The position numbers and the translations under genes are program-made. 64,000 bases of DNA. Source: Patescibacteria group bacterium. GTDB taxonomy: Bacteria; Patescibacteriota; Patescibacteriia; UBA2591; JAQUPP01. A model generated the notes under the pieces. It saw only the letters and a program-made list of their open reading frames with translations. It was not told the DNA's origin and did no database searches. The stretch covers positions 477,046-541,045 of the forward strand of contig JAQUPP010000001.1 of NCBI GenBank assembly GCA_028716665.1, written 5' to 3'. Shown here in pieces: positions 4,299-48,628 of the stretch; position 1 is the stretch's first letter, and each line of letters starts with the position of its first letter.

Positions 4299-4602
4299 TT
4301 TTTCCTCCTATTTTTTTCAAGAACTGTCTTAATAAAAACATATTTTTTGATTTTTGTCAACCCTTTTGAATTTATGATTTTGACTACTCAGAGTTATCCA
4401 CAATTGTCCCCACCCTCTCATTTTTAAAGTGCTATAATAAAAGGACATTAAACTTTATATTTTATTTATTTGGAAAAGCAAATTAATTTTGTTTTTCTTT
4501 CATTCATTTATAAAATAAAACAAGGTTATTTAAATTCAGGGGGAGTTTTACTAATTAGAAATTTTATATATATTTTTATTAAATTTATTTTTTAGAAAAA
4601 CT

Positions 4603-20239: not shown

Positions 20240-20395
20240 AAATGCAAAATGTAAATATCAAAAATCAAAATGACAATTCAAAATGTTAAAATTATTTCTT
20301 TCTATTTTTAATTTTACATTGTCATTTTACATTTTGATTTTTAAATTTTAAATTATTCCCGTTTTATAAAATAACTCATCTTATCTATCAATGTC

Positions 20396-20424
20396 TTGAC
20401 CATATTTAAGCCAAATGTTATAAT
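20396..20424 (+). promoter_or_regulatory. Near-consensus promoter abutting the rpsU start (leaderless)
   Basis: TTGACC, then 17 nt, then TATAAT, then 8 nt to the ATG at 20433. No SD. Confidence 0.5.
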
Positions 20425-20432
20425 AATAATAT

Positions 20433-20651
20433 ATGAGTATTGAACTTAAAAGAAAACCAAATGAATCCTTAAATATCTTTTTAAGAAGATTCAGCGAACG
20501 TATTAAAAGAAGCGGCGTACTTGACCTTGCCAAAAAGGGTCAATTTTATGTTAAACCGCAAAGTAAGCTTCTTCGCAGAGCAAGCGCTTTGTGCAGGAAA
20601 ACGTCTCGCGAGAAAATGGAATATTTAAGAAAACTTGGTAAAATTAAATAA
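20433..20651 (+). CDS. rpsU: 30S ribosomal protein S21
   Basis: 72-aa basic protein. ...FLRRFSERIKRSGVLDLAKKGQFYVKPQSKLLRRASA... matches the S21 pattern. It is followed by yqeY, the classic neighbour. Confidence 0.75.
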   Translation: MSIELKRKPNESLNIFLRRFSERIKRSGVLDLAKKGQFYVKPQSKLLRRASALCRKTSREKMEYLRKLGKIK

Positions 20652-20709: not shown

Positions 20710-21165
20710 ATGCTGTTAGAAAGAATTGAAAAAGATTTTAAACAAGCCTTGCGTGAAGGAGAGGGAGACACGAAGGCTGTTTTGCGTATGTTAAAATCAG
20801 CTTTGGCGTATAAGGCCATTGAGTTGAGACCTAAAAAACAAGAATTGACGGACGAGGTGGCTGTTGATATTGTCGGAGGAGAAATTAAAAAACGCAGAGA
20901 AGCGATAGAATTATACGAAAAAGGTAATCGGCCGGAATTAGCCGCCAAAGAAAAAAAAGAATTGGAAATACTTTTCAAATATATGCCTGAACAATTATCT
21001 GGTGATCAAGTGAAAGAAATGGTTTTAAATGTTATTAAAGAAATTAATGCCGCCGGTCCTTCGGATTTCGGCAAGGTGATGGGTTCAGTGTCTAAACAAA
21101 CCAAGGGAAAAGCGGACGGCAATCAAGTCAGCCAAATAGTCAAAGAACAATTAAACAATATCTAA
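20710..21165 (+). CDS. GatB/YqeY domain protein
   Basis: The full YqeY fold signature (...LKSALAYKAIELR...EIKKRREAIELYEKGNRPELAAKEKKELEIL...) is present. Confidence 0.8.
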   Translation: MLLERIEKDFKQALREGEGDTKAVLRMLKSALAYKAIELRPKKQELTDEVAVDIVGGEIKKRREAIELYEKGNRPELAAKEKKELEILFKYMPEQLSGDQVKEMVLNVIKEINAAGPSDFGKVMGSVSKQTKGKADGNQVSQIVKEQLNNI

Positions 21166-21188: not shown

Positions 21189-24100
21189 ATGAAAATTGAA
21201 ATAATTCGCCAAACAGCGAACAAAAAACAATTGAAAAAAAATATATTTTTAGGTTTTTTATGTTTATTGATGGTGTCCGGATTTTTATTTTTTATTTTAA
21301 GTCCGGTCATGACAAAAGCGCAAGAAATGAATAATGGTTTGGAAAATTTCCGCAGTGCGGCAAATTATGCCAATACTGATTTGCCGACGGCGATGGGAAG
21401 AATAATGAAAATTGTTTTGGGTGTACTCGGATTGGCGGCAACAGTTATTGTCATTATGGGTGGTTTTAAATGGATGACTTCGGGCGGAGATGAAAATAAA
21501 ATTTCTGAAGCCAAGAAATTAATGATGGCCGGCATTGTCGGCATTTTAATTATTGTTTTAGCTTACGCTATTTCCAGTTTTATTATCGGCAAACTTATGA
21601 GCGTAACTCCTCCTCCACCTCCTTGTGTGGGAAGTTCTTGTCTTAATAATCCATATAACCCTCTACCGGTAGATGTTTTTAAAGTTAAAAGAATTGAGAG
21701 CACCCACGGCAGTTCTTTGAAGGCAGGCTCTTTGCAGACAGATTATCATCAAGATGTTTATTTATGTTCGGCTGTCCAACCGATGTTTAATAATTGGATT
21801 AATGCGGAGGCAATTAAAGATTTGGCTCAGAATGATTTAAGAGTTGAAACAACAACAGGAGGCAATAAAATAAATGGCGAATGGCAAACCAGGGATGGCA
21901 TTATTATATTCAAGCATCAGGATTTATTTAACGAAAATACCGAATATACAACTTATTTGCCCAAAGCGATTCTGAATACAAGCAGTAAAACCTTGCAAGA
22001 TTGTTTGGCTAGCGGAACGGCTAACGGAAAATGTATAGAGAATGGAAGCTATTTTATTTGGAACTTTACAACCGGTACCACCACGGACAAAGTTGCTCCG
22101 ACCATTACTTCCGTTTATCCGATTTTAGACCAAACAAATAAACATTATCCGGATCAAAATGTCTCCCTTAAGCCGGCGATTGAAGTGAATTTTTCGGAAG
22201 CGATTGACGCCACTACAGTTATAGAAGAAGATAGTGTTAATCCGATTTCAGATAATATTTGGCTGGCTGAAATAGACAAACAAGGTGGCATAATTAAAGA
22301 AACTTTACTCCCCGAAGAATTTACAGTAAATATGAGTGATAATGGATTTAGATTAAATTTAAGCGATGCAAATTTATTAAAACCGTTTACATGGTATAGA
22401 ATTCATGTCAGCGATATTAAAGACCTTTGTTCAAATAAAATGGCCGCGGCAATGGAATGGGAGTTCCAAACCAATGATCGGGCACCCGGAATATCATCTG
22501 TCTATCCGGAAGGTAATAAAGTTTGTCTTGATTCTAATATTAGTATTGTCTTCAATACTCAAATGTATGACAATAATATAGACATAGAAATTAGTGATGG
22601 TGTCGATACTTTTACTACGAATATGACGCCAAGCGTTATCGGGGTGCCATATCAAAAAGTGATTACAGGCGGAATTTTTAAAGTGGACAATCCTAAAGAT
22701 CCGATTGATAACGGATTTAGGATTTTTACTTTTGAGCCGACTAATAATTTAAAAAGCAATACGAAGTATACGATAAAAATTAATACTGATTTGGTAATTG
22801 ACCAAAAAGGCGCTCTTTTAGCTCGCGAATGGAATTTTACGACCGCTACGCCGGAAACTTGTTTGTGTTCTCCTTGGATTTCTTCTTTGAATCCCGAACA
22901 AGGTTCAAATGGCCAATGTTTGACTATTAGCGGCGCCTGTTTTACTGGTACTGATTTACAATCTGCTGATCCGAAAATTGAATTTATCTTAAATAGTGTT
23001 TCTAAACCGGCAACAATTGGCGGAAAAGATAAAAATTATATTACTACCGTTGTCCCCTCAGATTATATAAAAAGCGATCAACCCCAAGTTCAAGTGACAA
23101 TTAAATATAGAACTGGAGGAGAAGAATTAGTTAGCAATCCATCCGAATTTACTGTTGATAGCGATGAAACAGCTACCGGTCCTTGTCTTTGGTCAATTAA
23201 TCCTTCCAGCGGTTATCCAAGTGAAACTTCAGTTAATTTAAGCGGTTTGCGTTTTGGCCCTGCTTCAGGTCAAACCACGCAACAAGTTAAATTTTATAAT
23301 AATCAATCAGCTTCTTTTAAAACTTGGTCAGATAACCTGATAGAAAAAACTTTGGTTCCAACGGATGCTGTGACCGGTAATGTCGCGATTATTAATGATG
23401 CAGGTACCAGTAATGGAATACCCTTTACAGTTTTACCGCATGTCGGATCGGCAGGATCTTTATGTCGAGCCAGCGAGTGTCCTTCTAATCCATTGAATAC
23501 TTGTACGGCTCCATATCAATGTAAAAATGAAAGTACTGACACTTGCCGCTGTTGTTGTGATCCAAAAAATGATTTATGCGCTTCACCACTTCATTGTTTA
23601 GCTGATCAAGGTAGTTGTAACAGCACTAGCGCAATCAATCCACGTGGTCTTTGTTGCGGTTGTACGGGAGATGATCAATGCGGCGCCGGCGCCGGTTGCG
23701 GGATGCTTGACTCAAATCGTTGCTGCTATAATCAGCCAACTGTTAAGATTTCTGCCTGCTCTAATCCTCAAAATCCTTCAAAAAAGATTGGCAACAATAC
23801 GGCTATTTCCATAATTTTCAGTGATCTAATGAATTATGGAAGTTTAAAAGAAGAAAATATTAAAATTTTTGAAGAAACAGCGGGAATTTGCAAACTTGAT
23901 AAAATTTGCGAACAAGAAACAAGTTGTAATTGTCAAGTTAAGAATGCGACAGTATGCACAGTCAATAAAAATAATAAAGAGTGTAATTATGAGCATATTC
24001 CTGTTCAGGGAAGAATTATTAATTCAGATGTTCAGAGAGAAGAAATATGTAAATTGGCTACTTTGAATTGTGATAAAGACAAAGGATGTGACTGCAAAAA

Positions 24101-27100
24101 TGGTAATAAAATAGTTTGCACGGTAAAAAAAGATAAAGATTCTTGTGCTTATTATGTTTCTGATCATACTGAAACTGTTTTTTATCCATCAGAGTGTAGG
24201 CTGGAAGAAGAGACTCTTTATAAAGTGACAATCAGAGGGGGGATTAACGGAAAAGGAATAATAAGCAAATCAGGTGTTTCCATAAAGGACAAGGAATTTA
24301 CGTTTACTACCGGAAATAAATATAATTTTTGCGACGTGGATCAAATTAAGGTTTCACCAGTTTCAACTATAATTAAGAGTTTTAAAGAAATAAAAAAATT
24401 TACTGCTCAGGCCAAAGATACAGAAAATAATTCAATTTGTGTTCCTGGATTTATTTGGGGTTTTCCCGATGATATAAATGTGGCAAATTATATAGAATCA
24501 TGCAGTCCTGCTAATTGTGATTGTATTAATTCTCAAGGACCCAGTTGCGCTAGAAATCTAAAAAAGGTTTTAATGAATCCTGCTATTGAAGCAAACGTTC
24601 AGGCGCAAGCTGAAGGAGCAACCGGAGTTTCTGCGTTTACTGCCGGAAAAAATGGCTTGGCAAATCTTGAAGTTGATTTAATTTCACCGGTGATTACGAG
24701 TATTAGTCCGGAGGAAGGCACTAATAATCCAATTATTCCAACTTATGTGACAATTACCGGAATAAATTTTGGTTCAAGTCAAGGCGAAAGTAAAATAATG
24801 TTTGGTAATGTGACTGCGGATATTGCTTGTCAGAATTGGTCTGACAAGAGTATTGTCGCCATTGTGCCGCCAAGTTTAGATAAAGGGTTAAATCAAGTGA
24901 CAATTTTTCAATCAGATCAGGGAGCGAGTAATCAGGTGGGTTTTAAGGTGCAAGATTCTTTTCATCCGGCGATTTGCAAGCTTCAACCGAATTTCGGTAA
25001 AACGGGCGACATTGTTTCTATAAATGGAAAAAATTTTGGAGATACGATGGCTAATAACGGTAAAATTATTATTGGAGATCCTTTAAATGGGGGAGTAGAA
25101 TTAGTGAAAACGGTAAATAATAAATCTAATCCTAATATTTTATCTTGGTCTAATCAGGAAATAAAAATAAAAATGCCTGAAGTTGCTCAAAATGAAGCTG
25201 AGGTGACTGTCTCGGTTCCTTCGCCGATTGAAGCCGGTAATCCTTTAAAAATTAGCAATCCCGTAACATTTCACAAAGCCCCGATAATTACGAGTATTAC
25301 GCCCGGTGATGGTCCGAAAAAAACATGGATAACAATTCATGGTTATAATTTCGGCTCTGTGAAGGGTGTAGTTTCTTTTAAATATAATAATACTAATTAT
25401 TCAGCTGCTGATTTACCAACTTACTGCGGATCGTCTTGGAGCGATACGCAAATTATAGTTGAAGCGCCGCAAATTTTGCCGGACGTGGCGACTGATCAAG
25501 ATTCTTATAATCTTCAAATTGAGGTTGATACCGATTATGGAATAGCCAGTCAGTCGGTTAAATGGACACTTAATAAAAAATTATTGGGTCCGGCGCTTTG
25601 CTCGATTAATCCGTCCAATGGCTGGCCGGGATTTAGTCCGGTTACGATTCAGGGTGAAAGATTTAATTTAGCCAGTGGCGAATCCGCCCGAAGTCTTGTC
25701 TTTAATAAAGACAAGGAAGCGGCAATTTTAACTTGGTCAACTGATGGCGCGATAAACAATATCGCTGTTCCGCAAGACGCAACCAGCGGCAATGTAGTGG
25801 TCACAAAAACAATTCAGACCAACAGCCGTCAAAAATGTATCGGTATTTCTTTTGGCGGAAAGTGTTTTGGTAAAAAGCAAACGGTTTGGGATGAAATTAA
25901 AATGACCAGTAATCCTCTTCATTTTAATATTGTTCCTTTGGGTGGTTGCGGTATTTTCGGCACTTTGGATACTCGAGACAGGGATCCGATTTTAGTTGGC
26001 GAAAAAGAGAATGAATATCCGCCTGTTAATCCTTTTGACAGCCAAAGTGTAGGAACGCTCGCTACTGACGGAAAATATCTTTACACAAAAAGTTGGTCAG
26101 GTTATGATCAATGGCCAAATGGAGTTTACGGATGTACTAATGGCAGCGGCTGTGAAGATAATATGATTAGTAAAATCGGTACCGGTTATCAAGGAACTGT
26201 GTCCGGTAAAATTTATAAAAAAGATTTGGCAACAGTCAATCACAGTCTTACAATGACTTATTTTCCTGATGATTGGCTTTATAACGGTTATACTAATAAT
26301 GGACATAATTTAGAAAGAGTGAATGTGATCACTGGTGCGGTTGATTATGTTGAGATTCCATCGTCAACGCCTTTAATGAATCGGGAAACCGGACGAGATT
26401 TAACTGAATTATATGAAGATCTTTTAATCACTTCTGACGGGAAATATGTTTATAATTTAGCTCATGGTATTAATGGCTCTTATTATAATGGTTTTAGAGT
26501 TAAAATTTTTGACCCGAATAAAAATTGGCAATTAGTGAAAGAATGGACTTCAATTGGTTCGGGCAGTTATATTCCATCTTTTTATACTGACGGTATTATT
26601 GCTGACGGAGACTATATTTATGCGATTCAATGGGGCACCGCAGGAGGCGGAGGTTATCTGATTAGAAAGATGGAGGCTCTAACCGGTAAAGTAATTGCCG
26701 AGTGGACGAGTGAACAAAAACAACTTAATAATCCGCAAGGTAAAAATACGGATATTATTTCCGGACAATATGATTGGGTTAATAATAAAGTTTGGTTGGG
26801 CGACTTGGTTGACCGTAGGAATGCCGATAATAAGTGCGACCAATGTTCGGGCTATTGTCATTGCACTCCGGCTTATATTTATCGTTATGCTTGCCAGGGA
26901 GCAGGTCAGTTGGGCTTACCTCAAGTAATTGGAGATGCCAATTGCGAAACTAATCTTCCGAGTCCTTCACCGGCTGCGGATCTATCCGCTGTTTGCTCTA
27001 ATGCCGTTATCAGTGCGCGTTTTAATCAAAAAGTGAGCGGTTTGACTCCTTTAAATATTCTAGTTCAAAAATGCAATAATGGTTCAGATAATTTTAACTC

Positions 27101-30100
27101 TCAAAATTGTACTGCCGACGTGGCAGGTAGTATTTCTTTAGACAGTTTTAATAGTCAAGGTTTTATTTTTACGCCAACTAATAATTTAGACGCGAATTAT
27201 TGGTATCAGATTACGTTAAAAAGCGGTTCCACCGGAATTAAAAATCTTAATAATTATTCTTTGGATGGCAATAAAAATAATATTCAAGACGGCGAGGATA
27301 ATTATTTTTGGCATTTTAAAACAGGATCAAATCTTTGTTCGCCCGAGAAAGTTAAAATATCTGAAACAGTACTAGTCGGTGAAAAAGCGGGAATAATTAT
27401 TAAACCAGGAACTAGAAATTATTTTGCTCAAGCTTTTGGTCCAAATTGTCAAATTCTAAAATCCGCCAGTTTTTCATGGACTTGGACCTCGACAAAATCT
27501 GAATTTGCCACAGTCGGCAGTTCGGTTAACAATCAGACAACTGCGACAGGAGTTGATTTGGGAGAAACAGATATAACCGTAACAACAACTCAGCCGGATC
27601 CTTCTGATGCCACTAAAGAAATTAAATTATCAAATAAGACCCATTTGATTGTTGCTACTAGGCCAACAGCAATAAATTATCCAGCGGTTGGCAGTACTAA
27701 TATTTGTCTTAATACTTCAATCTCCGCTACTTTTGACCAATTAATGGATGGATCCACGCTTAATTCAAAGACAATTAAATTTTATAAAGTAGTTCCCGAT
27801 TTGGATGAAGAAGAAGAAGGATCTCCGCTTTCATTTAACCAAAATATTAATAAAAATATTTTGGTTAGATTTTTTAATAATTTAAAAAATGTTTTTCTAA
27901 AGAAAACTGAAGCGGCGGAAAAAATTAATATTTCCGTGGTTGATGATGCAAAACAAACTAAAGTTTATTTAAACATTGATTTATTAGATGAAAAGAGTAC
28001 TTATAAAATAGAAATTCTTGGGGGAGAGAATGGCGTAAAAAGTAAATATGGCATTGGGATGACAGCAGATAAATCTTGGACGTTTATCACCGGCAAGGAA
28101 ATTTGTAAATTGAGTGAGGTAAAAACATCCATAACCGGCAATTCTGAAAAATGTACGGTTGGCGCGGATAAAAAATCGGCAGAATGTTCCAAGGAAAATT
28201 CAACAGTTAATTTTAAAGCTATTGCCAAAAATAATAGAGGAGAAGAAATTCAAAGCGTGACCGGTTATCAGTTGGCTTGGTCATGGAAATCTTCTGATAC
28301 AAATGTGGCGACTATTTCTAACACAGTTAATAATGCTGTTGCTACGGTGAAAAATAAAAATGGTTCAGCCCAAATTACGGCCACGGCTGAAATAACGGGG
28401 GGGAAAGAAAAAATTTCCAATAGTGCGTCAATTAAAGTTTTCCTTTGTGAAGTTCCATGGATTTTTGAAGATAAACTCGGTCAAGCGGAGACGAAAGAGC
28501 CTTATACTAATTTCAGATTGCAATATTGCCAGGGAGATTTAAAGAAAAATTTGGTTTCTAATGGAAGTTTTGAAATAGATAAAACCAAAGATGGCATTCC
28601 CGATAATTGGTTAAATCATGGTAAAGAATATAGTACTGATGGTAAAAATAGTTATTCCGGTAAAGCGGCTATCAAGCCGGGTTATTCATGGTGCCAACCC
28701 AGTGATTCATCTGTTATGCAATATGACATTACTATAAAACCAAATACTTTTTATACGTTTTCAGCTTATGTTAAGGGTGAAAATATATATGCGCCGCGCA
28801 TAGATATAAGATTTTATCATGATATTTCCGAAGATCCTCATCAATTTTCCAATAATTGCGCTTGGTATAATGGTGGAGTAGATAAGGCTGATATAAATTG
28901 CAGTTTTTCCGGTGTTTTGGATAAAGATAGTTACAAACGAATTTATTTTACTTTTAATTCCGGATCGAATGATAAAATTCAATATATATCCCTCCAAGGC
29001 GTGGGAGGCGTTTGCAACCCGGCCCAAGCTTGTAATTGTGGAAATTCTTCAGGAAAACCTTGTGATGCCAGTGCGTGTCCGCGCGTAGTTTGGTTCGATA
29101 ATCTCCAATTGGAAGAAGGTAAACAACCAAGTGAATATCAGGATTTTCCATCCTTACCGTATCTTGTCGCAACCGAGACTACGAAATCAAGCGTAGTTAA
29201 AGAATTTATTTTTACCAATAGTGTTAATAATGACGTGATTGGTCTCAAGGTTTTAAAAAATCCTGATTATCTCACTCCTTTTGAATGGTATAAGAAAAAT
29301 GTACCCAATCCCGGTTCACCGACTTCATTAATTGTTAATGGTTATCAGGCGGTTAAAGAAGGAAGAACGGTTTATGTCGGCGCGACAAATGTTGATAATA
29401 ATGAAATAATTGAAGGTCTGATTTATCTCATCTCATATTCTGATAACGCCAAGCCGGAAACAATTGATATTTTTAATAAATTAGTTGAAGATTGGCAATT
29501 TAATACAAATAAAACTGTTGATAAACAACTGATCCAACGGGATTTGTTCCGACTTTATGATTTAAGAACAATGAGCCAAAAATTGGCGGATTATAAATCA
29601 AATTATGATTATTATCCAAAACTTGAGTCGGGCAGTTTTATGAAAGGAATAACCGATTCCAAATGGCCTTCTTGGAAAAATCCTCAAGGGCAATTTATTT
29701 CCAGTATGCCGAATGATCCGATTAATCAATTCTTAAACCCGACAAGCGGTTATTGCGCCGGTTGCAATAATGCTAGCCAATGCGATGGAACATGTTATAA
29801 TCAAAGTACGAGTAAATACGAGTGTCCGGTCGGTTCGCACGTTTATCAATACATGGTTAAAGATGGAGGGGCGGATTATAGTTTGTATTTGAATTTTGAG
29901 ACAGATTCTTTGAAATGGCAGAAAAGTTGCAGCGGCATGGATCAATCCAACTGTGAAATTCATTATTTATGCGGTTGGGCGGCCAATAAATGTCAGTCAA
30001 AATTATTCGGTTATAGCTCAGATATTTACAAATGTTTTGATTCTGTCTATGGTCCGGTTATTGGGAAAACAATAATAGATTCATATGGATCTATTAGCGG

Positions 30101-30125
30101 AATGAATACTAATTATCAGCAATAA
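21189..30125 (+). CDS. Giant multi-domain extracellular protein (2978 aa) with an N-terminal pilin-like two-TM hairpin, Ig-like/IPT domains, a Cys-rich module, a beta-propeller-like region, BIG2-like domains and a CBM/laminin-G-like domain
   Basis: A single ORF with no SD. The N-terminus is ...IVLGVLGLAATVIVIMGGFKWMTSGGDENKISEAKKLMMAGIVGILIIVLAY. Cys-dense segments include CRCCCDPKNDLCASPLHCL. An IPT-like segment is PVITSISPEEG...ITGINFG. The CBM-like segment runs GSFEIDKTKDGIPDNWLNHG...VWFDNLQLEEG. Confidence 0.8.
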   Translation: MKIEIIRQTANKKQLKKNIFLGFLCLLMVSGFLFFILSPVMTKAQEMNNGLENFRSAANYANTDLPTAMGRIMKIVLGVLGLAATVIVIMGGFKWMTSGGDENKISEAKKLMMAGIVGILIIVLAYAISSFIIGKLMSVTPPPPPCVGSSCLNNPYNPLPVDVFKVKRIESTHGSSLKAGSLQTDYHQDVYLCSAVQPMFNNWINAEAIKDLAQNDLRVETTTGGNKINGEWQTRDGIIIFKHQDLFNENTEYTTYLPKAILNTSSKTLQDCLASGTANGKCIENGSYFIWNFTTGTTTDKVAPTITSVYPILDQTNKHYPDQNVSLKPAIEVNFSEAIDATTVIEEDSVNPISDNIWLAEIDKQGGIIKETLLPEEFTVNMSDNGFRLNLSDANLLKPFTWYRIHVSDIKDLCSNKMAAAMEWEFQTNDRAPGISSVYPEGNKVCLDSNISIVFNTQMYDNNIDIEISDGVDTFTTNMTPSVIGVPYQKVITGGIFKVDNPKDPIDNGFRIFTFEPTNNLKSNTKYTIKINTDLVIDQKGALLAREWNFTTATPETCLCSPWISSLNPEQGSNGQCLTISGACFTGTDLQSADPKIEFILNSVSKPATIGGKDKNYITTVVPSDYIKSDQPQVQVTIKYRTGGEELVSNPSEFTVDSDETATGPCLWSINPSSGYPSETSVNLSGLRFGPASGQTTQQVKFYNNQSASFKTWSDNLIEKTLVPTDAVTGNVAIINDAGTSNGIPFTVLPHVGSAGSLCRASECPSNPLNTCTAPYQCKNESTDTCRCCCDPKNDLCASPLHCLADQGSCNSTSAINPRGLCCGCTGDDQCGAGAGCGMLDSNRCCYNQPTVKISACSNPQNPSKKIGNNTAISIIFSDLMNYGSLKEENIKIFEETAGICKLDKICEQETSCNCQVKNATVCTVNKNNKECNYEHIPVQGRIINSDVQREEICKLATLNCDKDKGCDCKNGNKIVCTVKKDKDSCAYYVSDHTETVFYPSECRLEEETLYKVTIRGGINGKGIISKSGVSIKDKEFTFTTGNKYNFCDVDQIKVSPVSTIIKSFKEIKKFTAQAKDTENNSICVPGFIWGFPDDINVANYIESCSPANCDCINSQGPSCARNLKKVLMNPAIEANVQAQAEGATGVSAFTAGKNGLANLEVDLISPVITSISPEEGTNNPIIPTYVTITGINFGSSQGESKIMFGNVTADIACQNWSDKSIVAIVPPSLDKGLNQVTIFQSDQGASNQVGFKVQDSFHPAICKLQPNFGKTGDIVSINGKNFGDTMANNGKIIIGDPLNGGVELVKTVNNKSNPNILSWSNQEIKIKMPEVAQNEAEVTVSVPSPIEAGNPLKISNPVTFHKAPIITSITPGDGPKKTWITIHGYNFGSVKGVVSFKYNNTNYSAADLPTYCGSSWSDTQIIVEAPQILPDVATDQDSYNLQIEVDTDYGIASQSVKWTLNKKLLGPALCSINPSNGWPGFSPVTIQGERFNLASGESARSLVFNKDKEAAILTWSTDGAINNIAVPQDATSGNVVVTKTIQTNSRQKCIGISFGGKCFGKKQTVWDEIKMTSNPLHFNIVPLGGCGIFGTLDTRDRDPILVGEKENEYPPVNPFDSQSVGTLATDGKYLYTKSWSGYDQWPNGVYGCTNGSGCEDNMISKIGTGYQGTVSGKIYKKDLATVNHSLTMTYFPDDWLYNGYTNNGHNLERVNVITGAVDYVEIPSSTPLMNRETGRDLTELYEDLLITSDGKYVYNLAHGINGSYYNGFRVKIFDPNKNWQLVKEWTSIGSGSYIPSFYTDGIIADGDYIYAIQWGTAGGGGYLIRKMEALTGKVIAEWTSEQKQLNNPQGKNTDIISGQYDWVNNKVWLGDLVDRRNADNKCDQCSGYCHCTPAYIYRYACQGAGQLGLPQVIGDANCETNLPSPSPAADLSAVCSNAVISARFNQKVSGLTPLNILVQKCNNGSDNFNSQNCTADVAGSISLDSFNSQGFIFTPTNNLDANYWYQITLKSGSTGIKNLNNYSLDGNKNNIQDGEDNYFWHFKTGSNLCSPEKVKISETVLVGEKAGIIIKPGTRNYFAQAFGPNCQILKSASFSWTWTSTKSEFATVGSSVNNQTTATGVDLGETDITVTTTQPDPSDATKEIKLSNKTHLIVATRPTAINYPAVGSTNICLNTSISATFDQLMDGSTLNSKTIKFYKVVPDLDEEEEGSPLSFNQNINKNILVRFFNNLKNVFLKKTEAAEKINISVVDDAKQTKVYLNIDLLDEKSTYKIEILGGENGVKSKYGIGMTADKSWTFITGKEICKLSEVKTSITGNSEKCTVGADKKSAECSKENSTVNFKAIAKNNRGEEIQSVTGYQLAWSWKSSDTNVATISNTVNNAVATVKNKNGSAQITATAEITGGKEKISNSASIKVFLCEVPWIFEDKLGQAETKEPYTNFRLQYCQGDLKKNLVSNGSFEIDKTKDGIPDNWLNHGKEYSTDGKNSYSGKAAIKPGYSWCQPSDSSVMQYDITIKPNTFYTFSAYVKGENIYAPRIDIRFYHDISEDPHQFSNNCAWYNGGVDKADINCSFSGVLDKDSYKRIYFTFNSGSNDKIQYISLQGVGGVCNPAQACNCGNSSGKPCDASACPRVVWFDNLQLEEGKQPSEYQDFPSLPYLVATETTKSSVVKEFIFTNSVNNDVIGLKVLKNPDYLTPFEWYKKNVPNPGSPTSLIVNGYQAVKEGRTVYVGATNVDNNEIIEGLIYLISYSDNAKPETIDIFNKLVEDWQFNTNKTVDKQLIQRDLFRLYDLRTMSQKLADYKSNYDYYPKLESGSFMKGITDSKWPSWKNPQGQFISSMPNDPINQFLNPTSGYCAGCNNASQCDGTCYNQSTSKYECPVGSHVYQYMVKDGGADYSLYLNFETDSLKWQKSCSGMDQSNCEIHYLCGWAANKCQSKLFGYSSDIYKCFDSVYGPVIGKTIIDSYGSISGMNTNYQQ

Positions 30126-30154: not shown

Positions 30155-30760
30155 ATGCCAGATGAAATAAAAAATTTAGATGCGGATTTTGCCAATCAAG
30201 ATGGGGGAGTGGAAGATATTTTTGAGGATGTTGAGCGTAAGAATTTTATTTCTGATGAAAATAAAAATTCCGACAATTCATCGTCAAATCGCAAGAAATT
30301 CAATAAGAATTTTGTCCGTGTTGTTTTTATTATTATCATTATCGCGATTGTCGGGGCGGGAGTTTATTATTACGCTTTGCCGAAAATAAAAAATTTAATG
30401 GAACAGGCAAAAATAAAAAAACTCAATCAGACCGGGCAGCCTCAAGCAAATTCGGAAGACAAGACGGCGCCGATAATCATTATTAAGCCGATTGAAATGG
30501 CTCCTGATGCGGATGGTGACGGCTTGACGGATGAAGAAGAAATCACACTGGGCACTGATAAAAATAAATCTGACACTGATAACGATGGTCTTTCCGACCG
30601 AGAAGAAGTTAAAGTTTATTTAACAAATCCCTTAAAACTTGATACTGACGGAGACGGCATTAAAGACAGTCAGGAAATTAAAAATAATACTGATCCGAAT
30701 AATTCAAACCCAAACGCCAAATTATTGGATTTACAAAAAGAAATTGATAAATTAAAGTAA
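30155..30760 (+). CDS. Single-pass membrane protein with thrombospondin type-3-like Ca-binding Asp repeats
   Basis: Acidic N-terminal cytosolic segment, then a TM helix, then DADGDGLTDEEE...DTDNDGLSDREE...DTDGDGIKDSQE repeats. Confidence 0.6.
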   Translation: MPDEIKNLDADFANQDGGVEDIFEDVERKNFISDENKNSDNSSSNRKKFNKNFVRVVFIIIIIAIVGAGVYYYALPKIKNLMEQAKIKKLNQTGQPQANSEDKTAPIIIIKPIEMAPDADGDGLTDEEEITLGTDKNKSDTDNDGLSDREEVKVYLTNPLKLDTDGDGIKDSQEIKNNTDPNNSNPNAKLLDLQKEIDKLK

Positions 30761-31086: not shown

Positions 31087-32673
31087 ATGCCAGAAGAAAC
31101 ACCAATTCAACCGGAACCACAAAAAACAAATACTTCCGCGGTGCAGGATATTTTTTCTAATCCTCCGGCGGCGGCGAAAAGGGAGATTACAGAAGAAGTG
31201 ACTCAATACGGGACTACCGGAGAGATGATTTACGTTATGCCGGAAAAATTTCGTAAAGCTCAGCGCAAGCTATCAAAAAAAGATAAAAATAAATCTCTTA
31301 TTTTAATTTTGTGTCTTTTAATTATTATTATCGGCGGAGGATTGGGATTTTATTTTTGGATAAAAAATTATCATCCGAATATTCCGGTTATCACTCAAAT
31401 TCCGGCCATTACTCAACCGGATGAAAATAATTCTTCTTCTGTCCCGGTCGCAAATACTTCAATTGAACAGACTCTAAAAGCGGAAATAAAAGATCAATCA
31501 GGAGAATCTGTCTCTTGGTTGGAATTCTATTTACCTGCCGGAGCGGTCGATTCAAATTTAAAAATTGAATTAACTTCAGAACCGACAACCAATAATGATA
31601 CATATAATGATTATAAGGTTATTGGAGGAATTTATAAAATTCAATCCACTAATCTTGTTTTGCAAAAATCCGCAACCTTAAGAGCTTTTTATCATAATAA
31701 AATTATTGAAAGCAATTGGGAAAGCGATATTGCCTTGGGTTATTTAAAAGATAATATTTGGACTCCCTTATCAAGCACGCAAGATGCGGAAAATAATTTA
31801 GTCACTGTTCAATTAGACCTTCTGCCCTCCGATACATTTGCTTTGATTGTTTCAAAAAATAAAGCAACGCCTAAAATAGAAACATTTCAAGTGGCTCCGC
31901 AAATTTCTTCCACGATTGATTCTGATCAAGACAGTCTAACCGACACTGAAGAAACGATTTATCGTACGGGTATTAATAATCCTGATACTGATGGCGATGG
32001 CATAAGTGACGGTCAAGAAATAGTTAATTTAACCGATCCGTTGCAAGCGGGGGAGAATAAGCTTTCGGCCGCCGGTTTGGTTAATATTTATACCAACTCC
32101 ACTTTTTCCTACAGTTTTTTCTATCCATCTTCTTGGATAACCAGGGCGATTCCGGAAACTAACAACGAAGAAGTTTTGGTGATTACCAATACCGGAGAAT
32201 TTTTCAGCGCGACGGTGGAAAAAAATCCCGACCAATTGTCTTTGATTGATTGGTATTTAAAACAATCGCCGACAACAGAAAGAAATTTATTGACTAATAT
32301 TACGGTTAATAATCAACCTGCTCTTTGGAGTTCGGATCATTTGACAATTTATATTGCCAAAGATGAAAATGTCTATACGGTTTCATATAATGTCGGCACT
32401 GAAAAAGAGGCGAATTTCAAGGCTACTTTTAAAATGTTAATTAACAGCTTTCAATTCATCATTCCGTCCTCACCCGTTTCATCAAGGCCTGATGGAACTT
32501 TAATAAAATATCCGGACAGCGCCATGGTTTATTTGATTGAAAACGGCAGTAAAAGAGTTTTTAAATCAGGAGAAATTTTTGAAAAATTAGGTTATAAATG
32601 GGAAAATGTGATAGAAATTTCAGCGGATGAAACTTTTTTGGATGGTTCTATCATTGATGAAAATGAATCATAA
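31087..32673 (+). CDS. Single-pass membrane/surface protein with a TSP3-like Asp repeat and the shared C-terminal ~50-aa module
   Basis: TM at about residue 70-95. Repeat is DSDQDSLTDTEE...DTDGDGISDGQE. C-terminus is PDGTLIKYPDSAMVYLIENGSKRVFKSGEIFEKLGYKWENVIEI. No SD; start context is ttaaaaaatttggtatATG. Confidence 0.65.
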   Translation: MPEETPIQPEPQKTNTSAVQDIFSNPPAAAKREITEEVTQYGTTGEMIYVMPEKFRKAQRKLSKKDKNKSLILILCLLIIIIGGGLGFYFWIKNYHPNIPVITQIPAITQPDENNSSSVPVANTSIEQTLKAEIKDQSGESVSWLEFYLPAGAVDSNLKIELTSEPTTNNDTYNDYKVIGGIYKIQSTNLVLQKSATLRAFYHNKIIESNWESDIALGYLKDNIWTPLSSTQDAENNLVTVQLDLLPSDTFALIVSKNKATPKIETFQVAPQISSTIDSDQDSLTDTEETIYRTGINNPDTDGDGISDGQEIVNLTDPLQAGENKLSAAGLVNIYTNSTFSYSFFYPSSWITRAIPETNNEEVLVITNTGEFFSATVEKNPDQLSLIDWYLKQSPTTERNLLTNITVNNQPALWSSDHLTIYIAKDENVYTVSYNVGTEKEANFKATFKMLINSFQFIIPSSPVSSRPDGTLIKYPDSAMVYLIENGSKRVFKSGEIFEKLGYKWENVIEISADETFLDGSIIDENES

Positions 32674-32695: not shown

Positions 32696-33499
32696 ATGTC
32701 AACGGCTGATTTAATCATTAAAAAAAGAGTGGTTATTTTTTTTATAGTAATAGTTTTACTTTTTTTTGCTTTTTCCAATGGAGGAAAAAATACTCTATTT
32801 TTTTTATTGAAACCTTTCGAAAAATTATCTTATAAAATTTCGGGTCATCCGAAAAATTATATTGAATGTCAAAATTGGCAAAATGATAAATTGGCGTTGG
32901 AAAAAGAAATAAATAATCTTAAAACCGAAAATACCAAATTTCAAATATATCAAACGGAAAATCAAGTTTTAAAAAATCATTTAAATTTTTTAGAAACCTC
33001 CAAGGATTCATTTGTCATAACTAATGTTATAGGTAAAAGAATAGAAGCAGGTTATACTTGGTTTTTACTTGATAAAGGTAAAAAAGACGGTGTGAATATT
33101 GATCTGGCAGTTGTTGATGAAAATGGAATATTGGTTGGCACGATAATAAAAGTTGAAGATTATATTTCATTTTTACAGCCGGTTTTTGACAGTCATTCGC
33201 AAATTACCGCTGATATTATCATAAAGGGAGAGAGCCCTAATTCTGTCTCAGGGATAGTGCAGGGAGAATACGGCTTGACTATGAAAATGAATTATATCCC
33301 GCTTGATAAACCGATAAAAACCGGAGATATTATCATTACTTCGGGATTGGAAGAAAATATCAGGAGGGGATTGATAATTGGCGAGGTGGCGGAGATTAGC
33401 AAAAAACCAAATGCAGTTTTTCAGGAAGCAACTATTAAATCACCTAAGTCTCTCTTGGATTTAAGAATCGCGTCAATAATTTTAAAAAATACCCCATAA
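32696..33499 (+). CDS. mreC: Rod shape-determining protein MreC
   Basis: N-terminal TM, a coiled-coil and a C-terminal beta domain ending ...GLIIGEVAEISKKPNAVFQEATIKSP. It is followed by mreD and PBP2. Confidence 0.65.
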   Translation: MSTADLIIKKRVVIFFIVIVLLFFAFSNGGKNTLFFLLKPFEKLSYKISGHPKNYIECQNWQNDKLALEKEINNLKTENTKFQIYQTENQVLKNHLNFLETSKDSFVITNVIGKRIEAGYTWFLLDKGKKDGVNIDLAVVDENGILVGTIIKVEDYISFLQPVFDSHSQITADIIIKGESPNSVSGIVQGEYGLTMKMNYIPLDKPIKTGDIIITSGLEENIRRGLIIGEVAEISKKPNAVFQEATIKSPKSLLDLRIASIILKNTP

Positions 33500-33539
33500 A
33501 GTTTTAAAATATAAAAATGATTTTTAAATTTTTAGATTT

Positions 33540-34052
33540 TTGTATTCTAATATGGCCAAATTGAAACTTATATTATTATTTTTTTCAATAATCTGTTTAA
33601 ATATTTTACAGATTTCTTTTTTATTTAAATCTTCGGTTCTAAGGTATTTGAATCTTGCTCTGATTTTAATAATTCTTTTGCTAATTTTTAATAAATTTAA
33701 ATTTGCTATTTTGGCTGTGTTAACGAGCGGTGTTCTATTGGATTTATACTCTATTTTTAAGCCGGGAGTTTTTTTTCTGACATTTTTATTGACTTTGATT
33801 ATCTCTTATAAAATTATCAAAGAATTCAGTCAGATGTCGACGAACAGTGTTTTAATTGTGGCTATTTTAAGTAATATAGTTTATCAAATTATTATTTTAA
33901 TTATTGTTTGGCTTGCTTATTTTTTAAATTTTCAAGATTTTATGGTGGTGACAGACAGATTCTATTGGTTTAATTTTGGCTGGTCTGTTTTAGTAAACAG
34001 CATGGCAATAATCATGGGATATTCAATTATTAAAACTTTACGTCAAAAATAA
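33540..34052 (+). CDS. mreD: Rod shape-determining protein MreD (polytopic membrane protein)
   Basis: 170-aa, highly hydrophobic, five predicted TM segments, in the canonical position between mreC and mrdA. Confidence 0.5.
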   Translation: MYSNMAKLKLILLFFSIICLNILQISFLFKSSVLRYLNLALILIILLLIFNKFKFAILAVLTSGVLLDLYSIFKPGVFFLTFLLTLIISYKIIKEFSQMSTNSVLIVAILSNIVYQIIILIIVWLAYFLNFQDFMVVTDRFYWFNFGWSVLVNSMAIIMGYSIIKTLRQK

Positions 34053-34075
34053 AACAATGATAAGAAATATTTCTT

Positions 34076-36001
34076 ATGGACGATCCATTTAAAATTCAAC
34101 AAGAAGATAAGAATATCAGAGATGGAAATTTAGAAGGATTTAATCAGCGACGATATACGGGAAATTATTGGCCGCCGGAAGAAAATTGGGCCGGGCCGAT
34201 AGTTTTGCCTATGGAGAAAAAATCTCTTAATGTTTTTATTTTTTTAATGATCGCGGTTTTGACGATTGTATTCGGCAGAATTTTTTGGCTTCAAGTTTTT
34301 TCCGGACAGGAATTTAGGAATATGGCCGAGGGCAATAGAATCCGTGTTGAAACGATTAAGGCGGATAGAGGGCTTATCTATGATCGCTATCAGACTCCGC
34401 TTGTTAAAAATATGCCAAATTTTTCTTTAATAATAATACCTGTGGATTTGCCTAAAAATAAAGAAACAAGGATAGAAATTGTTAATAAAATTTCATCTTT
34501 TTTGGGGAAATCATTAGAAGATTCAATTAAAGAGGAATTGTCTAAGCTTACGGCTGATCAGCCCAATCAATCAGTATACCCCGTTGTTTTAAAAGATAGT
34601 TTGAGTTATGAAGAAGCGATGAAGTTAAAATTGGAAGAAATACCAGGCATCTCCGTAATTGTAGAACCAAAAAGGCAATATTTGGATCCTACTTATTTTT
34701 CGCACGTTATCGGTTATATGGGTAAAATTACACCCGAAGAATTGACTGATAATAAAGGATATTCAAGAACAGATTCTCTTGGTAAAACCGGATTGGAATT
34801 AAATTATGAAAATATTTTAAAAGGAGAAAATGGAGAAACAAATATTGAAGTTGATTCGCTTGGAAGAGAAAAAAGAATCGCCAGTCAAAAAACACCTCAA
34901 ACCGGACAAGATTTGATTTTAACCATTGACGCTGGTTTGCAAAAAAAAGTTACTGACGTTTTGAGTCATTATATTAAAGCGGCCGGCGCTCGCGCCGGAT
35001 CAGCCGTAGCAATAGATCCACGAAACGGCGAGATTCTGGCCATTGTCAGTTGGCCGACTTTTGATAATAATATTTTTATTCAAGCAAGCGCCAGTGATTT
35101 TAAAACTTTAATAGAAGATTCTTTCAAACCATTATTCTTCAGGGCAATCAGCGGTCAATATCCGTCAGGTTCAATTTTTAAGCCGATTGAAATAGCTGCC
35201 GCTTTTGCCGAAGGCATTATTAACGAGAAAACAACAATTCTTTCAACCGGAGGAGTGAGAATCGGACAATGGTTTTTCGGTGATTGGAAAACAGAAGGAC
35301 ATGGTATTACTGATTTTAGAAAAGCTTTGGCCGAATCGGTAAATACTTTTTTTTATTATATCGGCGGAGGATTTGGAAATTTTAAAGGCCTTGGACCGGA
35401 AAAAATTATTCAGTATGCCGAACTTTTCGGTTTAAACAGCAAAACAGGGGTTGATTTAAAAGGCGAGTCATCGGGTTTTTTATTAACACCTGCTTACAAA
35501 GAAAATGTTCAAAAACAGCCGTGGTATATCGGTGATACTTATCATTTATCCATCGGCCAGAGCAATATTTTAGTAACGCCGATTCAAGTGGCGAATTATA
35601 CGGCGGCCATTGCCAATGGCAAAACTCTTTTTCAACCTCGTTTGGTCAAGGAAATTGACAATTCGGAAACCGGCCAAAAAATAATAATTCAGCCGCAAAT
35701 TATCAGAGAAAATTTTATTGATCCAAAATATTTGGAATTAGTCAGAGAAGGAATGCGTCAAACAATAACTGTGGGCAGCGCGCGCAGTTTAAATACTTTG
35801 CCGATTCAAGTAGCCGGTAAAACAGGCACAGCCCAGGTGGAAGGAAAAGGCAATCACGCTTGGTTTACTTGTTTCGCGCCTTATGAAAATCCGGAAATAG
35901 CTCTAACTATTTTAGTGGAAAATGGAGGCGAGGGCTCATCTTTTGCCGCGCCGGCAGCCAAAGAAATTTTATCCTGGTGGGCAGAGCAAAAGAAAAAATA
36001 A
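34076..36001 (+). CDS. mrdA: Penicillin-binding protein 2 (peptidoglycan D,D-transpeptidase)
   Basis: PBP dimerisation domain plus transpeptidase motifs: SxxK (SGSIFKP), SxN (SVN) and KTGT (KTGTAQV). Confidence 0.85.
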   Translation: MDDPFKIQQEDKNIRDGNLEGFNQRRYTGNYWPPEENWAGPIVLPMEKKSLNVFIFLMIAVLTIVFGRIFWLQVFSGQEFRNMAEGNRIRVETIKADRGLIYDRYQTPLVKNMPNFSLIIIPVDLPKNKETRIEIVNKISSFLGKSLEDSIKEELSKLTADQPNQSVYPVVLKDSLSYEEAMKLKLEEIPGISVIVEPKRQYLDPTYFSHVIGYMGKITPEELTDNKGYSRTDSLGKTGLELNYENILKGENGETNIEVDSLGREKRIASQKTPQTGQDLILTIDAGLQKKVTDVLSHYIKAAGARAGSAVAIDPRNGEILAIVSWPTFDNNIFIQASASDFKTLIEDSFKPLFFRAISGQYPSGSIFKPIEIAAAFAEGIINEKTTILSTGGVRIGQWFFGDWKTEGHGITDFRKALAESVNTFFYYIGGGFGNFKGLGPEKIIQYAELFGLNSKTGVDLKGESSGFLLTPAYKENVQKQPWYIGDTYHLSIGQSNILVTPIQVANYTAAIANGKTLFQPRLVKEIDNSETGQKIIIQPQIIRENFIDPKYLELVREGMRQTITVGSARSLNTLPIQVAGKTGTAQVEGKGNHAWFTCFAPYENPEIALTILVENGGEGSSFAAPAAKEILSWWAEQKKK

Positions 36002-48227: not shown

Positions 48228-48235
48228 TTAACAGC

Positions 48236-48628
48236 AGACTGGATAATTGCCCCCCACCACTTTTAGACCTTATTTATGTTTATTTATTATAGAGTCTAAA
48301 AGTGGTGCGGGGAGGAAAGTCCGAACACTTCCCTGGCTTTAGTCAGGGAGCAGGGTAGCGGGTAACGCCCGTCCACAGTAATGTGAGAGGTGCGAACAGT
48401 GACGCCGCAATCCGAAAGGGTTGAGGCTTCCGAACTTGTTCGGAAGAATCCCAAAAGTAATTTTGGGAGTGAAACGGCCAAATCCTTACCTGAGTGAAAG
48501 ACCAAAGGCTTTGTGCTTTGCACAAGGCAAGGTAGGTCGCCAGAACCTTGATGTAAATCAGGGTCCAGATAAATAATTATCGCCTTTCGGGGTACAGAAT
48601 TCGGCTTATAGGTCTACAACAAAAAAAT
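48236..48628 (+). ncRNA. rnpB: RNase P RNA (bacterial type A)
   Basis: The P4 strands GGAGGAAAGTCCGAAC and ACAGAATTCGGCTTA are universally conserved. GGGTAACGCCCGTCC (P10-P12 region). A 15-bp P3 hairpin with an AT-rich loop lies at 48256-48312. A terminator hairpin follows at 48629-48660. The ends are approximate. Confidence 0.8.

Follow-up and report, generated by a model that had tools for sequence, protein, structure and literature searches.

A 2978-residue Patescibacteria protein joining a VirB2-type pilin hairpin to a long Ig-like ectodomain, a candidate surface adhesin

In a 64,000-nucleotide stretch of the genome of a Patescibacteria group bacterium (contig JAQUPP010000001.1, hereafter the window), the giant gene at 21189-30125 encodes a protein in which a predicted pilin hairpin of the VirB2 type is followed by a very long ectodomain. 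On balance, we favour reading this giant as a membrane-anchored surface fibre, and most likely as an adhesin that attaches the cell to other cells, a view drawn from sequence analysis that we hold with modest confidence. Throughout, P numbers denote proteins returned by a search with the whole protein, P0001 being the identical protein, and L numbers denote loci in other genomes that carry giants or matches to the pilin motif.

The gene itself is a single uninterrupted reading frame:

21189..30125 (+): giant open reading frame (ORF), ATG to stop, 2978 amino acids.

The sequence-only reading had asked whether this ORF might be an assembly chimera. Such an artefact, of assembly or of gene calling, would join several genes into one, and the evidence we collected is uniformly against it: NCBI already holds the identical protein, on a 640-kb contig, as 'MAG: Ig-like domain-containing protein [Patescibacteria group bacterium]' (MAG, metagenome-assembled genome), and independent homologues from other assemblies span every junction. 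P0002 and P0003 are collinear with the giant over residues 13-886, 992-2454/2470 and 2636/2653-2911, P0005 over residues 21-1584 and P0009 over residues 1935-2971. We looked for DNA repeats, tandem or dispersed, and for composition breaks inside the gene and found none, its composition being uniform at about 34-38% GC. Because independent homologues are collinear with the giant, a chimera is effectively excluded, and the sequence comparison identifies the ORF as a real gene for a 2978-residue protein of the ultrasmall Patescibacteria, or candidate phyla radiation (CPR). This origin, which had been proposed from the letters, agrees with the named relatives of the same architecture, all of which are Patescibacteria (Nomura-, Kerfeld-, Magasanik- and Uhrbacteria among them), the remaining records being unclassified 'bacterium'.

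The N-terminus of the giant contains three hydrophobic stretches, at residues 19-41, 67-93 and 111-136, which we assign as follows:

21189..21320 (+): signal peptide, residues 1-44, with a Lys-rich n-region, a hydrophobic stretch at 19-41 and the site TKA44/Q45 (TKA/QE).
21378..21599 (+): VirB2/TrbC-type pilin hairpin, residues 64-137, formed by helix 67-93, the loop KWMTSGGDENKISEAKK and helix 111-136.
21609..21623 (+): PPPPP linker, residues 141-145, joining the hairpin to the ectodomain, as read from the sequence.

In the homologue alignment the AxA/Q site is conserved across the family, and cleavage by signal peptidase is predicted between A44 and Q45. The hairpin matches the Pfam family T4SS_pilin (PF18895; cut-off 26.6 bits) with 32.3 bits in the whole protein and with 43.8 bits (E 2.7e-11) when residues 1-144 are searched. 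Two related models remain below their thresholds, namely TrbC (PF04956, 20.3-23.3 bits against a cut-off of 27.9) and NCBIfam NF045849, the Mbov_0395 family of pilin-like conjugal transfer proteins (30.6 against 40), and a PDB sequence search with the hairpin returned nothing usable. The earlier proposal of two hydrophobic helices in a TrbC/VirB2-type hairpin is therefore upheld by the curated PF18895 threshold as far as the hairpin goes; it had overlooked the signal peptide, which makes the hydrophobic stretches three. Judged as a VirB2/TrbC-type pilin, the giant has the family match as well as the leader, the two hydrophobic helices and the short charged loop, but it has neither the size of a mature pilin (about 70-150 residues, against 2978 in all and about 2,840 after helix 2) nor, by the ORFs scanned in the window, a place in a type IV secretion system (T4SS) gene cluster. 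Because the leader would be cleaved and the hairpin loop is rich in Lys, all of the roughly 2,840 residues that follow helix 2 are predicted to lie outside the cell.

This ectodomain is made up of the following segments:

21624..22844 (+): first Ig-like stalk, residues 146-552, a Big_5-like domain and then two clear Big_5 domains (best match 430-552).
22869..23432 (+): two TIG-like domains, residues 561-748, which cross-align with the TIG region 1167-1545 in BLAST comparisons with homologues.
23463..23726 (+): disulfide-rich module, residues 759-846, with 18 Cys.
23889..24146 (+): two 6-Cys repeats, residues 901-932 and 954-986, within an insert of low conservation.
24687..25823 (+): four IPT/TIG domains, residues 1167-1545 (Pfam TIG, 63.9 and 50.7 bits on segments).
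26052..26810 (+): predicted beta-propeller, probably five-bladed, residues ~1622-1874 (AlphaFold2 and Foldseek).
26916..28538 (+): second Ig-like stalk, residues 1910-2450 (Pfam on segments).
28545..29117 (+): CBM_4_9-like jelly-roll domain, residues 2453-2643 (borderline Pfam match).
29136..29948 (+): family-defining C-terminal module (C-module), residues 2650-2920, with sub-domain 1 at residues 2665-2775 (29181-29513).
29949..30122 (+): Cys-rich C-terminal tail, residues 2921-2978, with low predicted local distance difference test (pLDDT) scores.

At least 12 Ig-like domains of the Big_5 and TIG types are chained in the ectodomain. In the whole protein, Pfam TIG reaches 93.6 bits in six stretches and Big_5 112 bits in four, and the second stalk contains Big_5 at 1925-2045, a Big_5-like domain at 2157-2232 and a sub-threshold Big_2 match at ~2365-2407. 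The IPT/TIG-like domains named by the sequence-only reading are thus confirmed, whereas its BIG2-like domains are mainly of the Big_5 type, Big_2 (PF02368) scoring 14-17 bits, 17 at best, against a cut-off of 22.8. Taken alone, residues 561-748 gave no Pfam match. The Cys-dense block that the same reading had placed at about 23463-23740 is present, with the strings it quoted, and consists of the 18 Cys of residues 759-846; in 19 aligned sequences (the query and 18 homologues) their positions are largely conserved, most of them at 90% or more. Its description as Cys-knot-like is supported by neither profile nor fold evidence: the module has no Pfam match, and what can be stated is the set of 18 largely conserved Cys. 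The final Cys-rich tail was also correctly read (10 Cys within residues 2851-2950), and it is common to close relatives only. No wall-binding domain (SLH, LysM or PG_binding) was detected in the giant by Pfam, nor was there a Pfam match at E<=1 to RTX repeats, a type I secretion (T1SS) signal or LPXTG, and the C-terminus (...SISGMNTNYQQ) has neither an LPXTG motif nor a hydrophobic tail.

Two of the ectodomain segments resemble ligand-binding heads. For residues 1553-1909, an AlphaFold2 model built from an alignment of seven sequences has a mean pLDDT of 65.5, with core blocks mostly at ~70-94, and Foldseek returned 295 PDB matches to it at E<=1e-3, all 50 of those listed being beta-propellers. 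The best TM-scores, 0.57, were obtained with five-bladed folds, papaya glutaminyl cyclase (2iwa) and olfactomedin (5amo), and the best matches also include the phage phi11 receptor-binding protein and the surface lipoprotein BtuG1. The segment gave no Pfam match and nothing usable in a PDB sequence search; the beta-propeller suspected from the letters nevertheless holds as a fold call, on a model of moderate confidence. The second head is probably a concanavalin-like domain of the carbohydrate-binding module (CBM) family CBM_4_9 (PF02018), as had also been proposed. It scores 18.3 bits in the whole protein (residues 2453-2543) and 25.0 bits (E 2.8e-5) as a segment, just under the cut-off of 25.9, and the collinear homologue P0009 has precomputed matches to both CBM_4_9 and Laminin_G_3. 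Against PDB sequences the segment found weak matches (E about 0.8-1) to domains of an S-layer-associated endoglucanase.

The C-module is the part of the ectodomain by which the family can be recognised. It has no Pfam match, and its family profile has no PDB sequence match at E<=10. In an AlphaFold2 model of residues 2640-2978 (mean pLDDT 73.6), the alpha/beta sub-domain 1 and the long helix that follows it reach ~90, and confidence is lower in the Cys-rich remainder; sub-domain 2 consists of this long helix and then a part stabilised by Cys in which W, Y and DP residues are invariant. Foldseek against PDB and BFVD gave nothing significant for the module, its weak matches being to DcrB and to SciW/Eag lipoprotein-like folds (probability up to 0.84, TM-score <=0.36). 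Profile-profile comparison, in contrast, aligned sub-domain 1 with the C-terminal domain of partner B, a membrane protein encoded downstream of the giant (hhalign probability 96.4%, E 1.2e-9), which makes homology of the two domains a solid conclusion at the sequence level. The partner B domain itself matches PsbP_2 below threshold (20.6 bits, cut-off 27), and we tentatively suggest a PsbP/DcrB-like fold for sub-domain 1 because these two weak lines, the Foldseek matches and the PsbP_2 match of partner B, agree. A type IV pseudopilin-like head was considered for the second half of the module on account of its long helix and its 'YP', 'LPxDPxN' and 'YQY' motifs, and was rejected, no support for it having been found in PDB, Foldseek or Pfam.

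The whole-protein search returned 60 further proteins of 1.7-3.8 thousand residues, nearly all with PF18895 and Big_5 and often with TIG. The C-module is present in 50 of the 61 proteins found (P0001 included), and its profile matches 1713 representative clusters (50% identity) at E<=1e-3, of which 1345 also match at E<=1e-30; this is therefore a large unnamed family and not a one-off. Many of the matches listed are 1.5-5.4 thousand residues long, with the module ~1,400-2,700 residues from the start, and shorter matches with the module near the N-terminus resemble gene fragments. The databases label the family only as 'Ig-like domain-containing', the individual protein described here being already deposited.

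Mapping the homologue alignments on the giant delimits a constant scaffold of residues 1-890, 1000-1590, 1900-2450 and 2650-2920, within which the second stalk is conserved in about 45 of 60 homologues. The propeller insert is common only to P0002, P0003 and four short proteins in a dedicated search, and the CBM insert could be aligned only in P0009 and P0013 among the first 61 homologues. By this comparison of sequences, the propeller and the CBM domain are lineage-specific inserts in a constant scaffold and not features of the family. Other members have Laminin_G_3, VWA, disintegrin, Cys-rich DUF4215 repeats or HINT domains at the insert positions or after the C-module.

Two of these members, P0010 and P0014, carry Pretoxin-HINT or intein-type domains (about 50 bits) in long Cys-rich extensions that follow the C-module, and no toxin domain was recognised after the PT-HINT in either. 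These domains suggest autoproteolytic processing in some members of the family. They also prompted us to consider a polymorphic toxin, a reading that we rejected for the giant, which has no HINT, toxin or enzymatic domain.

Processing enters a further explanation, under which the giant would be a secreted pro-protein: its hairpin would serve only as a pro-domain for export and retention, and cleavage close to the proline linker would remove it, freeing a soluble lectin or effector of several domains. C-terminal processing is established for the TrbC/VirB2 propilins of RP4 and Ti, and the analogy with this trimming, the position of the PPPPP linker directly after helix 2, the signal peptidase I gene in the conserved upstream neighbourhood at L004, L007 and L008, and the autoproteolytic HINT domains elsewhere in the family all fit such a scheme. 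However, no conserved cleavage motif follows helix 2, where linkers vary widely among homologues, and the giant has none of the HINT, toxin or enzymatic domains just named, so that we consider release from the membrane very improbable.

The surface fibre that we favour would be part of a conserved gene neighbourhood, of which the window contains:

20396-20424: promoter-like site TTGACC-17-TATAAT just upstream of rpsU, the best of the region in a promoter scan.
20433..20651 (+): rpsU, ribosomal protein S21 (Pfam Ribosomal_S21, 32.9 bits), the first gene of the conserved run.
20710..21165 (+): yqeY, GatB/YqeY-like (Pfam YqeY, 150 bits), its stop 23 nucleotides before the start of the giant.
30155..30760 (+): partner A, 201 residues (TSP3_bac, 74.9 bits), starting 29 nucleotides past the stop of the giant.
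31087..32673 (+): partner B, 528 residues (TSP3_bac, 25.5 bits; cut-off 25).
32696..36001 (+): mreC, a polytopic mreD-like gene and PBP2, context genes.

The tight spacing after rpsU and yqeY suggests constitutive co-expression. Both partners are single-pass membrane proteins above the TSP3_bac cut-off, in line with the two TSP3-repeat membrane proteins that the sequence-only reading had placed downstream. In partner A, a cytoplasmic N-terminus bearing the motif EDIFxxVE is followed by one transmembrane helix and extracellular TSP3 repeats of the Ca2+-binding type; partner B combines a cytoplasmic YxMPxKF motif and one transmembrane helix with a TSP3 repeat and the PsbP-like domain. The motifs EDIFxxVE (nucleotides 30155-30300) and (I/L)YxMPxKF (31087-31260) recur in the partners at L001-L008 and could be where a cytoplasmic factor docks; we identified no match to a known motif family. 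Upstream of the promoter-like site, between a Na/Pi-cotransporter gene and rpsU, lies a 47-nucleotide imperfect, AT-rich inverted repeat (20238-20357, 79% complementary), which may be a terminator or an operator.

As far as the contigs reach, the order rpsU-(yqeY)-giant-partner A-partner B is found in the window and at L001-L009, L029, L036, L060, L066, L071 and L073. Individually, S21 lies upstream of the giant at L002-L005, L009, L029, L036, L060, L066, L071 and L073; YqeY lies directly upstream of the pilin-fused gene or genes at L001-L005, L007, L009, L029, L036 and L066, and a few genes upstream at L008; and a partner A orthologue lies directly downstream at L001-L004, L007-L009, L060 and L073, and after one extra gene at L006. 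The core order is kept around giants of only ~25-35% identity, in a complete Nomurabacteria genome, a Kerfeldbacteria genome, an Uhrbacteria MAG and others, and seven further giant loci from the pilin-motif scan described below show those parts of it that their contigs reach. At L004, L007 and L008 the run is preceded by hisS together with the signal peptidase I gene, and in other lineages ybeY-dagK-ftsA-ftsZ-nrdR follow the partners in place of mreCD.

Many lineages have a mid-size protein of 535-740 residues, with the pilin hairpin and Big_5, between yqeY/rpsU and the giant (L007, 8364-9971; L008, 8111-9916; L029, L036, L060, L066, L071 and L073). The lineage of the window lacks this gene, and L006 has two tandem giants. 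L008 (Uhrbacteria, JACPHT010000007.1) shows two further features. At 6662-8071, a bAvd gene and an RVT_1 reverse transcriptase gene lie directly upstream of a 601-residue pilin and Big_5 protein, which is followed by the giant; such a pair is typical of a diversity-generating retroelement and hints at targeted hypermutation in some members. At 4559-5323, YqeY is 249 residues long, and its C-terminal ~110 residues match the hidden Markov model of the giants' pilin hairpin (E 1.3e-8). Either a fusion of YqeY with a pilin or an artefact of the reading frame may explain this long form; a true fusion would link the always-adjacent YqeY with the pilin-fused genes.

This setting raises the question of whether the giant has a role in the core envelope instead. 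Together with its TSP3 partners it could form a constant surface layer or spacer, or a device for positioning division or elongation, in which EDIFxxVE and YxMPxKF would couple the assembly to the cytoskeleton. The conserved site after rpsU-yqeY and beside ftsA-ftsZ or mreC-mreD-PBP2 (in Nomura-, Kerfeld- and Uhrbacteria and in the lineage of the window), the short conserved cytoplasmic motifs on the partners and the very large size and wide spread of the family all speak for such a scaffold. Synteny may, however, persist in small genomes even between genes that do not work together. The inserts of lectin type, which are hyper-variable, and the variable C-terminal extensions suggest diversifying ligand recognition and not a structural constant; one locus (L008) has a putative retroelement-type pair of bAvd and reverse transcriptase beside it, and the wall-binding domains SLH, LysM and PG_binding went undetected in the giant. 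We therefore regard a scaffold role as rather doubtful.

The hairpin also connects the giant with small pilins. A scan for the loop motif GGFxW[MI]T[SA][GA]G in one genome per species matched at least 595 loci, and the best 80 of these comprise about 70 tandem arrays of small pilin genes, 7 giant loci and 3 single small pilin genes. The arrays typically have 3-12 pilin-domain genes per locus, mostly of 110-300 residues and some of up to about 560. The hairpin of the window is 42-59% identical to pilin-domain matches in 79 non-orthologous loci, mostly small array pilins; because the arrays share its pilin domain at this level of identity, the anchor of the giant is a true member of the array-pilin family. 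Pilin-domain proteins form a size continuum from 110 to 3,400 residues, including proteins of 300-560 residues within the arrays.

These arrays correspond to the VirB2-like pilin arrays known from Patescibacteria, which previous work has shown to be essential in the cultured Saccharibacterium Southlakia epibionticum (PMC10633639). T4SSs are near-universal across Patescibacteria, and virB4 is close by for only about 60% of array-type pilin genes (PMC12102498). At two arrays of 6-7 small pilin genes (L011, 8703-11572, and L021, 9860-12446) virB4 is absent within 10 kb, in agreement with that figure, and the label 'T4SS' is not supported there by local context; an SBP_bac_1 solute-binding gene lies near both. 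Many of the scan loci (L010, L015, L019, L020 and about 30 more) are entitled 'uncultured Gammaproteobacteria bacterium' (TPA_asm MAGs) and carry Patescibacteria-type pilin arrays, so that these titles may reflect misassigned taxonomy.

In view of this kinship, the giant might be a pilus-borne adhesin, its hairpin co-polymerising with the small array pilins, with or without a T4SS, so that a pilus of the conjugative type would carry the ectodomain along its length or at its tip, by analogy with modular type IV pilins that bear lectin or VWA modules. The hairpin does pass the T4SS_pilin threshold and resembles array pilins (42-59%) as much as it resembles the hairpins of many giants; the size continuum includes the 535-740-residue fusions directly upstream of giants; and the arrays are essential in one cultured organism and T4SSs near-universal, as cited above. 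Against this, no Pfam-recognised T4SS component occurs among the scanned ORFs (at least 100 residues, plus rpsU) of the window, nor, for six loci with tabulated genes (L001-L008), within about 10 kb, the other giant loci having been searched only with the seven models built in this work and not for T4SS genes. The giant has its own conserved neighbourhood, which is not that of a T4SS, and an ectodomain of 2,840 residues per subunit is sterically incompatible with a major pilin; being too bulky for that, the giant could therefore only be a rare or tip subunit. We also found no description of a VirB2-type pilus of Patescibacteria in the papers we covered. Such a pilus-borne arrangement is an unlikely explanation.

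Collectively, these results are best accommodated, in our judgement, by a membrane-anchored adhesin. Under this hypothesis, Sec would export the giant and the hairpin would anchor it in the cytoplasmic membrane, while the Ig-like stalk would project lectin-type heads past the wall. The propeller and the CBM domain would bind glycans of a host or neighbouring cell, and the lineage-variable inserts would determine binding specificity. The C-module and the two TSP3-repeat, single-pass partners would form the constant, Ca2+-dependent part of the surface assembly, associating through domain-domain contact or through a common ligand.

Several findings support this reading. The Big_5 and TIG domains, the borderline CBM_4_9 match and the 95 Cys of the giant are content of an extracellular type; the best propeller matches include surface receptor-binding propellers (BtuG1, phi11, olfactomedin); and a constant scaffold with variable inserts is accompanied by partners A and B that are conserved despite ~25-35% identity of the giants. 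The homology of the C-module with partner B and the size of the family (1713 clusters) also count in its favour, as do the earlier view of large Parcubacteria proteins as adhesins (PMC4508563) and the essential lectin-domain surface proteins of a cultured Saccharibacterium (PMC10633639). Other findings weigh against it. The deeply conserved housekeeping neighbourhood (rpsU, yqeY, ftsAZ or mreCD) fits a core envelope role at least equally well, the CBM_4_9 match falls slightly short of its cut-off, confidence in the propeller model, built from seven sequences, is moderate, the second half of the C-module has no significant fold match in Foldseek searches of PDB and BFVD, and the hairpin may not stay attached after export. 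The sequence-only reading had arrived at a host or cell-surface interaction machine from domain content, which is reasonable; it had missed the features that define the family, namely the signal peptide, the conserved C-module with its homology to partner B, the synteny and the lineage-specific nature of the propeller and CBM inserts.

A broader and more speculative possibility is that the VirB2-type pilin fold is a general polymerising carrier of extracellular domains, in proteins of ~110-3,400 residues, and that the giant, its mid-size neighbour and the TSP3 partners form a phylum-wide surface organelle that is independent of T4SS and positioned with division or elongation. We doubt this at present; if true, the organelle would be the conserved attachment device of CPR lineages other than Saccharibacteria.

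Experimental work on attachment in Patescibacteria concerns Saccharibacteria only, where type IV pili, a T4SS with pilin arrays and lectin-type adhesins are implicated; a cultured Saccharibacterium cannot grow as an epibiont without its lectin-domain surface proteins (Wang et al. 2023 Cell, PMC10633639). A 2025 survey of the phylum detected no adhesins and does not mention giant fusions (Quinonero-Coronel et al., PMC12102498). The giant locus is a concrete candidate for attachment outside Saccharibacteria, with its fixed scaffold, swappable lectin-type heads, two partners and fixed chromosomal position. Furthermore, counts of 'T4SS pilin' domains in genome surveys need careful reading because they take in giant fusions encoded away from T4SS genes. 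Future work is given defined targets in the C-module, in its homology with partner B and in the positions of the variable inserts. In the literature we covered, which did not extend to subscription journals, no description of pilin-fused giants in CPR was found, and as far as we found there is no prior description of the type of anchor, of the C-module family, of the homology with the partner or of the synteny, large adhesins in CPR being an old idea.

The rest of the window is ordinary chromosome, with genes for aminoacyl-tRNA synthetases, DnaE, GatB, RecJ, MreC, PBP2, RodA/FtsW, RNase P RNA and a two-component system. Its sole Rfam match at gathering threshold is the bacterial class A RNase P RNA (48231-48624, +, 121 bits). 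A second giant ORF (4603-11547, +) encodes a separate large surface protein of 2314 residues, with an N-terminal signal peptide, five CarboxypepD_reg domains and weak TIG and SpaA-like matches; a pilin hairpin is absent, and NCBIfam gave no match. An 808-residue protein (36703-39129, +) has a right-handed beta-helix (NosD/Beta_helix) and a C-terminal SH3_3 domain, and one of 380 residues (56602-57744, -) has a weak Baseplate_J match; these two genes are possibly surface- or phage-related.

Among known systems, the VirB2-like array pilins of Patescibacteria share the N-terminal module of the giant, that is, the signal peptide, the two helices and the GGFxWMTSGG loop motif. They are mostly 110-300 residues long, tandem and often near virB4, whereas the giant is a single gene for 2978 residues in another neighbourhood. 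Giant Ig-repeat adhesins are known from the RTX adhesins of the LapA/MpIBP/SiiE type and from the fibrillar LPXTG adhesins of Gram-positive bacteria. These resemble the giant in the long tandem Ig-like stalk, the distal ligand-binding modules and the presence of Ca2+-binding elements in the system; unlike them, the giant appears to be anchored at its N-terminus by a VirB2-type hairpin, lacks RTX repeats, a T1SS signal and LPXTG, and has its Ca2+-type repeats on separate partner proteins. In Streptococcus sanguinis, PilB and PilC are modular type IV pilins with lectin or VWA modules, and here too a pilin fold carries grafted adhesive modules. They belong to the type IV pilin superfamily, with modules of about 200-400 residues, as against VirB2/TrbC and 2,800 residues in the giant, whose polymerisation would be by analogy. 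Closer in organism are the unique, beta-rich Parcubacteria (OD1) proteins of more than 1500 residues described as 'indicative of adhesins' (Nelson & Stegen 2015, PMC4508563), which probably include the giant family; that description gives neither anchor, domain map, family definition nor synteny. The giant proteins of Omnitrophota (West-Roberts et al. 2023, bioRxiv 10.1101/2023.11.21.568195) are likewise very large, mostly extracellular, encoded by ultrasmall bacteria and proposed to serve attachment. They reach 10-85 thousand residues, with many transmembrane helices and SecA-like domains, and lie near type II secretion genes; no sequence relationship with the giant was detected. Taken together, the giant is best described as a combination of two known kinds, a VirB2-type pilin module and a giant adhesin-like ectodomain, set in a conserved three-gene module.

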